Shown piece by piece: positions 7,008-63,814 of a stretch of DNA of 64,000 bases. The stretch's first letter is position 1. The number at the start of each line of letters is the position of its first letter. A program made the position numbers and the translations under genes. This DNA is from Escherichia coli (lineage in GTDB: Bacteria; Pseudomonadota; Gammaproteobacteria; Enterobacterales; Enterobacteriaceae), in assembly GCA_031701365.1 (NCBI GenBank), contig GCA_031701365.1_4118.1; one strand, given 5' to 3'. The notes below the pieces were generated by a model. The model had not been told where the DNA came from and ran no database searches. It worked only from the letters and a program-made list of their open reading frames with translations.

Positions 7008-7035
7008 TGACAGAAGATATCAGTACTGTATAATG
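7008..7035 (+). promoter_or_regulatory. sigma70-type promoter with AGTACTG in spacer
   Basis: TTGACA 7008-7013, spacer ends CAGTACTG, TATAAT 7030-7035. Confidence 0.6.
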
Positions 7036-7064
7036 TTTATATCAAACGAAATCCACTTTAACAA

Positions 7065-7358
7065 ATGATAGGAAATATTATGTCTTTTTCTAAAGAAGAA
7101 CGTGACCTTATTAAAAAAGCAATCTGGTTTTATGCTAATGAAGGGAAGTGCGATGAAGAAAAAGCACGTGAACTGTGTAATATCTTTGAGAAGAAACAAG
7201 ATCTAAAAGTGTATCGTATCCGTGATTTGGATGAAGGGGATCGTATTGTCCTAGCTGAAACAAAAGAAGAAGCAGAACAAATCTTCACTGATAAAAACGA
7301 AAATCCACATTGGATGGAAGAAGTCTGTGATGTTAAAAAAGGTACTTATATCGATTGA
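7065..7358 (+). CDS. hypothetical protein
   Basis: 97-aa ORF, RBS TAGGAAA. Confidence 0.65.
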   Translation: MIGNIMSFSKEERDLIKKAIWFYANEGKCDEEKARELCNIFEKKQDLKVYRIRDLDEGDRIVLAETKEEAEQIFTDKNENPHWMEEVCDVKKGTYID

Positions 7359-7383
7359 CAGTACTGAATAATAGCAGTATAAT
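7355..7383 (+). promoter_or_regulatory. sigma70-type promoter with GTACTG in spacer
   Basis: TTGACAGTACTGAATAATAGCAGTATAAT. Confidence 0.6.
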
Positions 7384-7476
7384 GTTTATATCAAAGGGAA
7401 TGCAGTGAAAGGAAAGACAGCATAATCGTACTCGTCACTGCGTTTCCACCCTTTTAAATTAATTAAGGAATTAACT

Positions 7477-7785
7477 ATGTTTCAAACTAACACTCAAGGT
7501 TTTGTAATCATCGATTTGAATCAAAACAGCGGTTATTGGATGAAACCTACTGACGCATGTATGCAGTTTGATTTCTTAGGTTACAGAATTAGTGTAAGTA
7601 CTGGTGCTTCTGTACTGAGGGGTGGTTGTATCGTTGAACATCTGGTAACTGATCCAGAAGGTCGTGAGTATGAAATCGCAGGTTCAGTACAAGATGCCAT
7701 TATGTTTGTATGTCAGCGTGAAATGAATGGTTCGAACTCAAATGCACTGACTCATGCTCTTTCTCAAGAAGTGGAGGTTCGTTAA
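7477..7785 (+). CDS. hypothetical protein
   Basis: 102-aa ORF, RBS AAGGAA. Confidence 0.65.
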   Translation: MFQTNTQGFVIIDLNQNSGYWMKPTDACMQFDFLGYRISVSTGASVLRGGCIVEHLVTDPEGREYEIAGSVQDAIMFVCQREMNGSNSNALTHALSQEVEVR

Positions 7786-8036
7786 TGAAATACATTGTAG
7801 CAGTACTCGTCGCATTTTTACTCACTGCATGTGATGCTTCAACCAAAGAACGCACAAGTGATTTTGAACTCCCTACTGAATTAAAAGAAGCAGGATGTAA
7901 GATTTATCGTATGCAACAGGAAGGTGCTGGTGCAACGTTGTATACAGTTTATTGTCCTAATGCAAACACCAGTACTGGATACACTAGCGGAAAAACACGA
8001 ATCAACACTTCAGTGATTAATGGAGTACAACAATGA
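7785..8036 (+). CDS. putative lipoprotein
   Basis: 83 aa; signal peptide ending in lipobox LTAC. Confidence 0.6.
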   Translation: MKYIVAVLVAFLLTACDASTKERTSDFELPTELKEAGCKIYRMQQEGAGATLYTVYCPNANTSTGYTSGKTRINTSVINGVQQ

Positions 8037-8401
8037 GCCTTGATACAACCCGTGCAACAGATTTATTCACTCGTCTGAATGATGAAGAATATCTTGCTGA
8101 AATAAAGTACAAGCTTGAAAAACTGGCTCGAAGTGCTGAAGTAATTGAAGTTAAAGGTCATTTACCAATGGATCAATTCCATACGTTCAAAGAAGATATG
8201 GTTTATTATCCAAATGAAATTTGGATTGAGTGGGAACATTGGACTAACAAAACTCTACGCATTGAAGGTTATTGTGTGAATTATGAATCTGAACCTGGTG
8301 ATGTTACAAAAACTCTCTCCATTTGGTGTACAAAAACACATGAACTAGTTGAGGTGAATTTGAATTATATGAAAGGTTTCCGTTGGGGTGATATTCAATG
8401 A
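8033..8401 (+). CDS. hypothetical protein
   Basis: 122-aa ORF, ATGA overlap. Confidence 0.6.
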   Translation: MSLDTTRATDLFTRLNDEEYLAEIKYKLEKLARSAEVIEVKGHLPMDQFHTFKEDMVYYPNEIWIEWEHWTNKTLRIEGYCVNYESEPGDVTKTLSIWCTKTHELVEVNLNYMKGFRWGDIQ

Positions 8402-8673
8402 TTAAAAAACTATTGACAGTTGTCTTTGTATTCTGTACAATGTTTCTTACAGCATGTAATGATGACGGCAGGTTTAGTGCAAAAGACTTAGTTCGTCAGG
8501 ATTGTAAATTCACAGGCAAGTCTTTTATTAACGAGTATGAAATATGTACACAATCAGGTCGTATCTGTGGTGGTTGGGAAAAACGTCAGGAGCGATTGTA
8601 TGTATATGAATGCCCTGGACATCACAACAAAGTACTAAGCACACACAAACTTGTTTATGATAAGGTTGAATAA
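8398..8673 (+). CDS. putative lipoprotein
   Basis: 91 aa; signal peptide with lipobox LTAC; Cys-rich. Confidence 0.6.
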   Translation: MIKKLLTVVFVFCTMFLTACNDDGRFSAKDLVRQDCKFTGKSFINEYEICTQSGRICGGWEKRQERLYVYECPGHHNKVLSTHKLVYDKVE

Positions 8674-8888
8674 TGACTACCAATGAAATGATGCAGGTTA
8701 TTTGGGATAAAGGTTGTGATATTAAAATCACTAGTACTGATGTTCGTGTATTCAAAACTGAATATATGGAGTACTTGGATCTTGATACTTATAATAATAT
8801 TGTATCAATTGAACACAAAGGTGCAGTACTGGAAACGATTGATGTAGTACTCAAGAAAGCTACCGACCTATTAGGAGTGGCAGTGTGA
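8673..8888 (+). CDS. hypothetical protein
   Basis: 71-aa ORF, TAATG overlap. Confidence 0.55.
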   Translation: MTTNEMMQVIWDKGCDIKITSTDVRVFKTEYMEYLDLDTYNNIVSIEHKGAVLETIDVVLKKATDLLGVAV

Positions 8889-9039
8889 ATAACAAAGAGT
8901 GGGAAGATTACCGCAAGAAGTGCCGAGAGTTTGATAAAGAACTCACAGGTACAGTGAACGCGGTAATGTGGGTATCTGCAATTATTTCAGTACTTGGTTT
9001 GGGTGCTATTATTATTAATAAATTATTCTAAGGACTAAT

Positions 9040-9240
9040 ATGTTTACTTTATATCTTGCAGTAGTACTAACTAATGGTGAAATCACTCGCACCGTTGGTG
9101 AAGGTGTATATAAAACACCTGATCAGTGTTACTCTGCAACTCATTGGCCTCGTGATGCTGGTGATGAATCTCGCACTGAATACAAATGTATGAAGATTAA
9201 AGGTGACTTTGTAAATCTAAAGGTTATTGAGACTAAGTAA
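9040..9240 (+). CDS. hypothetical protein
   Basis: 66-aa ORF, RBS AAGGA. Confidence 0.55.
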   Translation: MFTLYLAVVLTNGEITRTVGEGVYKTPDQCYSATHWPRDAGDESRTEYKCMKIKGDFVNLKVIETK

Positions 9241-62403: not shown

Positions 62404-62538
62404 ATGAAAGCAGCAAACAACACCAAAAAAGCAACCAATCCCCTGGCTGGCTGGAAGTTAGATTTATCCGATGAAGTGGTTTGCACAAATAGTAATGTAG
62501 TTGAAGCTGAAAAGAAATTAAGAAAAGAAAAAAAATAA
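62404..62538 (+). CDS. hypothetical small basic protein (44 aa)
   Basis: not in ORF track; RBS AAGGAAA. Confidence 0.4.
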   Translation: MKAANNTKKATNPLAGWKLDLSDEVVCTNSNVVEAEKKLRKEKK

Positions 62539-62541
62539 GTA

Positions 62542-62602
62542 TTGACAAAGTATCTTAGTACTGTATAATAGTTTACATCAAGTGAGGGGAATGGTTCCCC
62601 TC
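62542..62602 (+). promoter_or_regulatory. PeSL-like promoter plus stem-loop
   Basis: TTGACA 62542-62547, TATAAT 62564-62569, GAGGGGAATGGTTCCCCTC 62584-62602. Confidence 0.65.
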
Positions 62603-62625
62603 CTAACAAAAAGAGAGAAATTAAA

Positions 62626-62949
62626 ATGACTATGATCCTTACCCAGAAAGTCGAATTGAAAATTGTAACCTCCTTTGACATTAAAGTTAATCGGTGGACT
62701 GATAGTCACGGCAATACTTACCACTCCTGCTACGTGTCAGCATTGATTGGTGACCGCTGGGAAGACCTGGGACATGAAACCTTTACTTACGGTTACGGCA
62801 CACAAGGAGAATACACGGGCTTGGAGATCATTAAAGAAACTGTAATAGGTTTCAACCCGAAAGAGAAAGTACTACACAGAATTGAGGAAGAGATCAACAA
62901 AGAAATTACAGTTCGTTACTACGATGTAAAACGTAAGAAAGACATGTAA
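62626..62949 (+). CDS. hypothetical protein (paralog of the 56063 gene)
   Basis: 107-aa ORF. Confidence 0.7.
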   Translation: MTMILTQKVELKIVTSFDIKVNRWTDSHGNTYHSCYVSALIGDRWEDLGHETFTYGYGTQGEYTGLEIIKETVIGFNPKEKVLHRIEEEINKEITVRYYDVKRKKDM

Positions 62950-62971
62950 TAGAATCCATTTAAAGTACTAT

Positions 62972-63000
62972 TTGACATTGCCCAGATAGTACTTTATAAT
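62972..63000 (+). promoter_or_regulatory. sigma70-type promoter (TTGACA ... TAGTACTT TATAAT)
   Basis: read directly. Confidence 0.5.
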
Positions 63001-63039
63001 AGACTCTAACTTGTAGTACTAATTAACTTAACTAATAGG

Positions 63040-63444
63040 ATGTACACCATGATTACTAAATTCTTCGCTACCCGTGAACAAGCTCGCATCGTTGCTCGTG
63101 AAGAAGGTGAAACATTTAAAGACATGGGCAAAGATGCACCGAAAGGACAACGCTGGGCGGTACAGTTCAAAGAGATCTCTGATATTGTGAATTCACCTGA
63201 GCCTGTACTTACTGAAGCAGAACTAAAGCAAGCTCAAGAACTGGCTGAAGTACTGAACGCTCAAGATAACTTCTTGGAAGGTTCTGATATTCAAGTACAA
63301 GTGAATAGTAATGCATGGACTCACGCGGATCACCTGGCAAACCTTAAGCGTCCAAGTGAACTGATTCGTAACCAGAAAGAGATCCGTCATGACCGTAAAG
63401 GAAACCGTGTAACAGTATACAGTAAACGCCGCCAGGTTATCTAA
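63040..63444 (+). CDS. hypothetical protein (paralog of the 50739 gene)
   Basis: 134 aa; alternative start at ATG 63049. Confidence 0.65.
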   Translation: MYTMITKFFATREQARIVAREEGETFKDMGKDAPKGQRWAVQFKEISDIVNSPEPVLTEAELKQAQELAEVLNAQDNFLEGSDIQVQVNSNAWTHADHLANLKRPSELIRNQKEIRHDRKGNRVTVYSKRRQVI

Positions 63445-63506
63445 TAACTTTGCAGTACTAACAACACGGCGGGAACTATTCCCGCCTTTTTTATAGGATA
63501 AACAAA

Positions 63507-63761
63507 ATGATTAAGGTTCAACTATCAAACGATAATGTATTACGGGTACACTATAAAGCCCCACAGAGAATCATCTCAAAGGCCGTACAGCTTGCTAATG
63601 AGTTTATTAATGGTAGTCTATTACCCAGGAAGTTAAGCAACGGGAAACTACGTGTTATCGATGTAGACACTAACAATAGAATAGTGATCGAGAGTACTGG
63701 AAAAATTAATCTATACGAACACCAACAATACAATAAAAAAATAAAACTAATATCACGTTGA
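63507..63761 (+). CDS. hypothetical protein
   Basis: 84-aa ORF, RBS TAGGATAA. Confidence 0.6.
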   Translation: MIKVQLSNDNVLRVHYKAPQRIISKAVQLANEFINGSLLPRKLSNGKLRVIDVDTNNRIVIESTGKINLYEHQQYNKKIKLISR

Positions 63762-63814
63762 CAGTACTCAAATGTTTTAGTACTATGTATCTATACCAAC
63801 ACGGGGAAAACAAA

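Follow-up and report, generated by a model that had tools for sequence, protein, structure and literature searches.

The closest formal analogue of the palindromic hexamer AGTACT, which we analysed in a 64-kb stretch of DNA (the window; contig GCA_031701365.1_4118.1), is HIP1 (GCGATCGC) of cyanobacteria. Each is a short palindrome that belongs to one clade, is in many-fold excess genome-wide, inside genes and outside them, and is conserved above the neutral level; we know of no explanation for HIP1, even after decades. Unlike HIP1, a word of cells, AGTACT is a hexamer in a virus, where it occupies fixed registers in promoter cores, is densest near the genome terminus and gives way locally to a one-stranded variant; no cognate methylase was identified for it. 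Chi (GCTGGTGG) and the DNA uptake sequences are likewise dispersed self-words in which density and not position is selected, but they have known readers, lack symmetry and depend on orientation, whereas AGTACT is palindromic and about 10 times denser. Over-represented words of this sort, once their readers were known, revealed major DNA-handling machines. On the protein side, the abundant phage proteins SPO1 TF1 and phi29 p6 bind DNA preferentially at early promoters or at the ends of the genome. In those phages too, strong early promoters for the host polymerase are clustered in a long terminal redundancy, and the sites overlap early promoters or genome ends, with binding presumed to extend genome-wide; TF1, however, reads hydroxymethyluracil DNA and p6 reads bendability, neither of them a discrete hexamer, and no homologue was found here. 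The SlmA-binding sequence GTGAGTACTCAC, whose half-site needs G1, T2, purine 3, A4 and G5 (PMC3020112), is a 12-bp palindrome with the same central AGTACT, but the flanks that SlmA requires (G1, T2, purine 3) are unused and partly avoided in the window. As set out below, AGTACT is a real, selected, clade-wide and hyper-abundant palindromic word and, in addition, a fixed part of the early promoters in the terminal repeat.

The window derives from a jumbo coliphage of the Asteriusvirus group, as identified by megablast (121Q, PBECO4, SP27, JP4 and slurp01), with 90–98% identity to these relatives over the aligned parts. AGTACT is its top hexamer, above the A/T-rich ones: 252 copies were counted, with a median spacing of 196 bp, against 21.8 ± 4.4 (largest 34) in dinucleotide-preserving shuffles. 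This is an excess of about 12-fold, the opposite of what avoidance of a ScaI-type target would give, and no other 6-bp palindrome is enriched beyond ~2.3-fold. To divide the copies into coding and non-coding we used our own crude gene calls. Non-coding DNA carries 7.7 AGTACT per kb (86 sites compared with 4.5 ± 2.2 in a first-order Markov simulation), and coding DNA carries 3.1 per kb; about two-thirds of the copies (163/252) lie inside genes. In 300 shuffles that kept the proteins and the global codon usage, only 39.6 ± 5.6 coding copies (largest 57) were expected, and the excess was seen in each of frames 0, 1 and 2 (75, 35 and 53 copies, with 22.8, 6.2 and 11.0 expected from the same shuffles). 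The dipeptides Ser-Thr (142 vs 89.5) and Val-Leu (150 vs 107) are also in excess. Together, the excess over synonymous shuffles and the dipeptide excess indicate a pressure at the DNA level, with enough force to influence protein sequence; codon or amino-acid bias as the cause was ruled out by the synonymous and codon-order shuffles. A sequence-only reading of the window had proposed an element enriched across non-coding DNA and had named codon usage as the explanation that could overturn it. The non-coding enrichment was confirmed and codon usage does not account for it, but coding DNA is enriched as well, and with most copies inside genes, in all three frames, the word cannot be described as a promoter or non-coding element as such. 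Sites are distributed evenly along genes, with no positional bias found within them. The widest gap between AGTACT sites in the window, 1.9 kb at 25435–27343, holds an endonuclease-like gene that is probably mobile, which fits a signature acquired by resident DNA.

The excess extends well beyond the window. Observed and expected counts were 119 and 16.9 in RaK2 (Klebsiella), 181 and 10 in GAP32 (Cronobacter), 178 and 9.9 in CBB (Pectobacterium), 56 and 8.8 in XbC2, 31 and 4.9 in Yersinia phage fHe-Yen9-04, and 47 and 8.9 in the structural region of 121Q. It is thus common to four genera (Asteriusvirus, Alcyoneusvirus, Mimasvirus and Eneladusvirus) at similar density, and it is absent from the more remote PA5oct (a Pseudomonas relative; 1 and 8.4) and Atu_ph07 (an Agrobacterium relative; 0 and 4.3), with which RsoM2USA is grouped as AGTACT-poor. 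A 50-kb sample of E. coli K-12 holds 3 copies where 11.6 are expected, and the word is ~65 times denser in the window than in this sample. Along ~287 kb of JP4 the density is even, with 1.6/kb in replication and structural genes (almost all intragenic), ~3/kb in the middle and 6–7/kb in the direct terminal repeat (DTR). The proposal of a local regulatory motif therefore gave way to that of a property of whole genomes across the clade. A search of the accessible literature found no description of the AGTACT palindrome in these phages.

Comparison with vB_Ec-M-J (27 kb aligned, 90% identity) showed that 121 of 151 sites are intact (80%), compared with 63% of all hexamers (P = 6e-6), and that per-base identity is 0.93–0.97 inside the word and 0.88–0.90 beside it. 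AGTACT therefore shares with HIP1 a genome-wide excess in both classes of DNA, specificity to a clade and a retention above that of other words. Between genera the picture differs: in eight orthologous genes (~40–80% amino-acid identity, one pairing near 20%), each phage has 19–24 sites, yet only 1–4 of ~20 keep their position. Positions turn over and counts stay constant, as expected for many weakly selected, individually replaceable sites, and we infer that the trait under selection is density, as with Chi or uptake sequences. Among the relatives, XbC2 (OP292654.1, Mimasvirus) has Xanthomonas as its listed host; it shows the AGTACT excess, lacks GCGC and carries two E. coli-type Chi copies in 26.6 kb, and its evolutionary host may be enterobacterial.

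The bases preferred around the hexamer, T-n-C-AGTACT-G-n-A, show two-fold symmetry: C at –1 (44%) is matched by G at +1 (45%), and T at –3 (48%) by A at +3 (50%), with the same values for coding and non-coding sites. CAGTACTG occurs 54 times where 0.67 are expected. Longer forms, TTCAGTACTGAA and TGATTCAGTACTGA, are present in the terminal leader, and palindromes of 12–14 bp cluster at the genome end. Since A precedes 72% of all GTACT pentamers, the full palindrome is preferred over the half-site. Of the nine classes of one-mismatch neighbours, AGGACT/AGTCCT alone is depleted, and for the C-to-T neighbour AGTATT the observed/expected ratio is 1.3. Because the neighbours lack the depletion that it predicts, a drive by mismatch repair or methylation of the very-short-patch (VSP) type was ruled out.

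The same neighbours bear on the idea that AGTACT is a target of methylation or other modification, its dense marks serving as an epigenetic self-label, a role that has been suggested for HIP1 together with its methylases. Methylases typically act on palindromic hexamers, and the clade encodes two DNA methyltransferases (PMC3622015), both of which are found among the JP4 genes. One is a C5 cytosine methyltransferase of 286 amino acids (L008:48238-49098) that aligns over its full length to the catalytic domains of mammalian DNMT3A/B/C (E ~1e-23). This Dnmt3-like enzyme fits the CpG methylation reported for RaK2 DNA (PMC3622015), but AGTACT contains no CpG. The other is a small Dam-type adenine methylase of PF05869, a family that is widespread in phages (1798 records). 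Methylation alone would also leave the fixed promoter registers described below without an account, and a modification target is, in our assessment, distinctly unlikely.

RaK2-type myoviruses have genomes of ~350–380 kb with DTRs of ~20 kb (PMC13070987). The termini of one of them, fEgEco12, were determined with PhageTerm and restriction digests, which defined its DTR (PMC13070987), and the fEgEco12 record opens with AGTAGGCAGAGGAAGTCTGCC, which is window position 47904. The region that the sequence-only reading had called ORF-free (free of open reading frames) therefore forms the physical left end of the virion DNA, as a leader of 1.7 kb. Dense clustering of AGTACT was indeed found there, although the count given as more than 20 for 47.6–49.6 kb proved to be 18. 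After the leader come ~40 small early genes, of which many have a sigma-70-type promoter to themselves.

In these promoters the word is placed with precision. Taking as strong those sigma-70-type promoters that match at least 10 of 12 consensus positions, we found AGTACT in 25 of the 32 such promoters on the + strand of the DTR portion of the window. Two registers predominate. In the first (n = 15) AGTACT starts 7–8 bp before the –10 hexamer, with its centre near –16.5; in the second (n = 11) it starts 27 bp before the –10, with its centre near –36.5, and overlaps the first base of a TTGCAA –35. On the + strand, AGTACT starts at –7 relative to TATAAT 15 times among 113 cases and at –27 13 times, and any other offset has 4 or fewer, so that the predicted positional bias relative to the –10 was upheld. 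AGTACTGTATAAT occurs 14 times (13 on the + strand, 1 on the – strand). The count of at least 14 promoters of the form TTGACA-N9-AGTACTG-TATAAT holds if the –35 is allowed to vary; a perfect TTGACA at N9 is present in 8, and the others have TTGACT, TTGATA or TTGCAA. AGTACTG is invariant in all 14 while the nine other spacer bases differ, so that its conservation is that of an element and not the result of recent duplication. Other placements include TTGACAGTACT and AGTACT-AT-TTGACA. In the early regions of GAP32 and CBB, pairs of AGTACT 20–22 bp apart are over-represented and are the commonest spacing. Many good promoters lack the word, among them the terminator-promoter fusions GGTTGACTTCGGTCAGCC...TATAAT, and only 7 of the 35 candidate promoters in 1–32 kb contain it. 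The fusions (13114, 16538, 25198, 27225, 58079 and 62122) have the hairpin GGTTGAC-TTCG-GTCAGCC and a T-run; the stem supplies the –35 (TTGACT) and TATAAT follows the T-run.

Could AGTACT be a promoter element proper, sigma-specific or of the extended –10 type, with the other copies as by-products of codon usage or duplicated cassettes? The fixed registers in early promoters are what such an element would show, the window encodes a sigma-70-family factor, and in the AGTACTGG-CATAAT class (7–8 promoters in the window) the flanking G yields the TG of a true extended –10, as also in AGTACTGA-TATAAT of the JP4 tRNA region. In the commonest class, AGTACTG-TATAAT, the TG falls at –14/–13, off the extended –10 position (–15/–14), and the register may be –7, –8, –9, –27 or fused to the 3' end of the –35; this variability, together with the misplaced TG, argues against a sigma-specific extended element. 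The promoter explanation is also largely refuted by the 163 genic copies, four-fold above synonymous shuffles. The differing spacer bases set recent duplication aside, and the structural and replication genes of relatives carry 1.6–2.7 AGTACT per kb with hardly any non-coding DNA. It is thus very improbable. Of what the sequence-only reading had offered, a dedicated, non-chance recognition element stands, and a sigma-specific extended element is unlikely. A site within the polymerase footprint fits an operator, and a palindrome that overlaps the promoter core, as expected for the operator of a dimeric repressor, is what the 25 early promoters have. The word, noted earlier within the RCC1 cassettes, is also found at the other end of transcription units. 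Of seven hairpins CCAGTAC-N3-6-GTACTGG, all at the 3' ends of – strand genes and with terminator-type stems, six separate the tandem RCC1-like genes.

Very probably some factor reads AGTACT. The explanation that we favour, tentatively, is that a symmetric, probably phage-encoded DNA reader uses the word to mark phage DNA and to switch early promoters. AGTACT (extended, TTnCAGTACTGnAA) would then be a selection-maintained, clade-specific 'self-word' of RaK2-type jumbo phages, and its putative reader a two-fold symmetric protein, specific for sequence in double-stranded DNA and most probably a phage-encoded dimer. Density would be what is selected, with many weak sites marking phage DNA and the strongest ones concentrated within the opening 1.7 kb of the terminal repeat and in the cores of its sigma-70-type early promoters. 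A dimer bound near –16.5 and/or –36.5 would compete with host RNA polymerase, and given where the strongest sites lie the same reader would most likely act as a switch of early transcription, probably turning it off, and would coat or mark the remainder of the genome. Such a reader could be a functional analogue of SPO1 TF1 or phi29 p6.

Several observations weigh against this proposal of a symmetric reader. No helical phasing or clustering was found among the coding sites, so that cooperative coating is not indicated. Of the 141 ORFs of the window searched against Pfam, none matched a helix-turn-helix, ribbon-helix-helix or other DNA-binding family except the sigma-70-family factor, and searches of PHROGs and NCBIfam with selected window ORFs added no DNA-binding domain; most of the window ORFs are orphans. 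The JP4 annotation names no candidate regulator in the part surveyed, which together with the window amounts to ~287 of 371 kb. The strongest objection comes from two JP4 (PQ330092.1) gene arrays just downstream of the DTR, where AGTACT is replaced on one strand only: ~50 AGTACA stand against 0 TGTACT in one array and the reverse holds in the other. Such a polar substitute is not predicted by a symmetric duplex binder and points to a strand- or direction-dependent reader, and it is mainly this polarity that limits our confidence in the favoured mechanism.

These arrays contain zero AGTACT over 4.5 and 7–8 kb in JP4, 121Q and CMSTMSU, and 4–9 AGTACA or TGTACT per kb. In the AGTACA array the replacement is commonly CAGTACAG, and GTACT is absent over 5 kb. 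The 121Q and CMSTMSU arrays match at 86–93% identity with sharp borders, and the two arrays are paralogous. Both are transcribed on the + strand, and in both the strand that carries AGTACA is the one whose 5'→3' direction leads away from ~168–170 kb (a layout of the form <<<< PPP >>>>). Since the palindrome is excluded here, it must be read with consequences, at a cost in some contexts. The arrays are the main ground for a strand-specific explanation, in which AGTACT is a primase start or recognition site, the target of a nicking enzyme or the signal for some other single-strand or tracking process, and the palindrome simply presents the signal on both strands. In its favour are the strict polarity of the replacement word at a shared direction of transcription in JP4, 121Q and CMSTMSU, and the presence of a primase, a DnaB-like helicase and a clamp loader among the phage's own genes. 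It sits poorly with the preference for the full palindrome and with the symmetric flanks, coding constraints partly explain which end of the word changes, and avoidance of the word on the second strand is left without explanation. Moreover, polar arrays were not seen in the tracts examined in CBB (downstream of the terminal repeat) and GAP32 (start of the record). We therefore consider a strand-specific signal unlikely.

Instead of a phage protein, a conserved host protein of the Enterobacterales might bind the word, the phage recruiting or titrating it with thousands of sites per cell. The host range of the excess, present in Enterobacterales phages and not in their Pseudomonas or Agrobacterium relatives, is in keeping with this, and the core is identical to that of the SlmA site (PMC3020112). 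SlmA itself was rejected: sequences resembling its binding sequence (GTRAGYRCTYAC, at most 2 mismatches) occur at chance (21 vs 21.3 expected), and the flanks are unfit, with a preference for T/T/C, G least used at –1 (9%) and GAGTACTC present once. The LexA box is the dyad CTGT-N8-ACAG, and the promoters carry TACTGTATAAT but no ACAG eight bases downstream, so that the LexA spacing is not present in the promoter sequences; the half-sites of the TrpR-type consensus are unfit in spacing and flanks. XbC2, listed under Xanthomonas, keeps the excess, although its host assignment is uncertain. A host factor is, on balance, quite improbable. Two phage candidates were also discarded: window ORF 21270–21665, a 'restriction enzyme' in one relative, lacks family support, and the JP4 protein named 'starvation-inducible transcriptional regulator' belongs to the ferritin/Dps-like DUF5856 family.

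A second word is conspicuous by its absence. GCGC occurs 0 times in the window against ~60 expected and is absent from every RaK2-type sequence examined; it is normal in PA5oct and Atu_ph07, and its density is 6.8/kb in the 50-kb E. coli sample. Also missing from the window are 17 palindromes of 6 bp that would each be expected 3 times or more, GGTACC, CTGCAG, GGATCC and CCATGG among them. These absences point to strong avoidance of restriction sites, which implies largely unmodified DNA. It is conceivable, if rather doubtful, that a phage-encoded AGTACT reader and the absence of GCGC form a two-sided code that separates unmodified phage DNA from host DNA. Phage processes could then act on one DNA only, for example in transcription switching, replication priming or nicking, or selective destruction of host DNA, and the one-stranded AGTACA arrays would show a reader able to work directionally. 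Whichever reader applies, its identity would explain control of early transcription or self/host DNA discrimination in 350-kb phages that use the host polymerase and apparently unmodified DNA. The case is tractable, given a short and dense word in four genera of culturable E. coli, Klebsiella, Cronobacter and Pectobacterium phages, ~25 early promoters in the window that carry it, and AGTACT-free arrays as natural negative controls in the same genome. In practice, the output of motif finders on these genomes needs caution, since AGTACT will come up as a promoter motif even though it is a genome-wide word.

Table 1. Location of the promoters, word clusters and other features discussed in the text (window coordinates unless JP4 is named)
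Feature	Position	Strand	Remark
+ strand genes	1-31.5 kb	+	first of four window parts
Sigma-70-family factor gene	3659-4624		Pfam match
T7 gp0.7-like kinase	18966-19640		in + strand gene part
Endonuclease-like ORF	25459-26835		inside AGTACT-free stretch; relatives annotate homing endonuclease
RCC1-like gene array	31.5-43.7 kb	-	
Terminator-type hairpins (GCCAGTAC-loop-GTACTGGC, then T-run)	30885..41333	-	
Hairpin starts	30885, 35157, 36370, 37623, 38887, 40107, 41317		
Small ORFs	43.7-47.9 kb	+	
Two AGTACT sites	47826, 47886		18-78 bp outside terminus
DTR start	from 47904		identity with position 1 of fEgEco12 record
Terminal leader	47904..49582		16 AGTACT, 9.5/kb; best extended palindromes
TTGACA-N9-AGTACTG-TATAAT promoter	7007..7034	+	exact copy
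Further exact copies of that class	11317-11344, 21667-21694, 58624-58651, 59216-59243, 61368-61395, 62346-62373, 62542-62569		
Double-site promoter AGTACTTGCAA-N..-AGTACTG-TATAAT	53259..53291	+	overlaps -35 and abuts -10, 20 bp apart
Same double-site design	54044-54076, ~57261-57293		
Related promoter	~57586-57618		-10-proximal copy only
-35-edge class (AAAGTACTTGCAA-16-TATAAT)	49552..49584	+	AGTACT overlaps upstream edge of -35
-35-edge class, further starts	50329, 51008, 51568, 52370, 55676, 58184, 62223		
TTGAC(A/T)-N..-AGTACTGG-CATAAT class	51354..51382	+	flank TG gives true extended -10 (TGnCATAAT)
AGTACTGG-CATAAT class, further copies	55991-56019, 58937-58965, 59739-59767		
AGTACTGG-CATAAT class, opposite strand	53698-53670, 51526-51498	-	
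Chi	4856, 21190, 34147, 48449(-), 48461, 55226(-), 55288, 59453, 60915, 62180, 63853		
JP4 array 1	~163-167.5 kb of JP4		TGTACT only, ten in a row
JP4 array 2	~170.5-178.5 kb of JP4		AGTACA only, ~50 in a row, all three frames

Some further features of the window and its relatives were recorded (Table 1). Chi is itself in excess, with 11 copies in the window where 0.6 are expected and 9 copies in 30 kb of GAP32 and likewise of CBB; two of the window copies form an inverted pair, CCACCAGC-TTGT-GCTGGTGG, 545 bp in from the left terminus of the genome. In the JP4 GenBank record the DTR is present twice in tandem, at ~124–143 and 143–163 kb. No known RNA family was found in the window at the gathering score, and one window ORF matches a ParE-like toxin domain in Pfam. 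Just upstream of the terminus, ~13 paralogous ORFs of ~60 amino acids (MN..HKEFY...) occupy 43765–47619 on the + strand, where GC skew is negative despite the + strand ORFs, like that of the neighbouring – strand genes. A scan of viral contigs for paired TCAGTACTGA sites gave 121Q, short AGTACT-rich contig fragments and one unrelated iteron array, and no informative new context. That array, at 3690–3940 of the unrelated contig IMGVR_UViG_3300025098_000171 (L025), consists of ~14 tandem 18-bp iterons, TATAGTACTGAACGCTTG / GATCAGTACTGAACACTT, each with AGTACT, and looks like a replication-origin array. Within the terminal leader of the window, a small hairpin, GGCAGAGGAAGTCTGCC, directly follows the left terminus at 47908–47924. 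Further in, ~14 units of an 8-bp tandem repeat (AAACGGCT / GGATGGCT) span 48650–48810, with GGATTTTGGGCGTA repeats nearby at 48592, 48618, 48973 and 49189; these repeats might serve as an origin or as a signal for packaging or injection.

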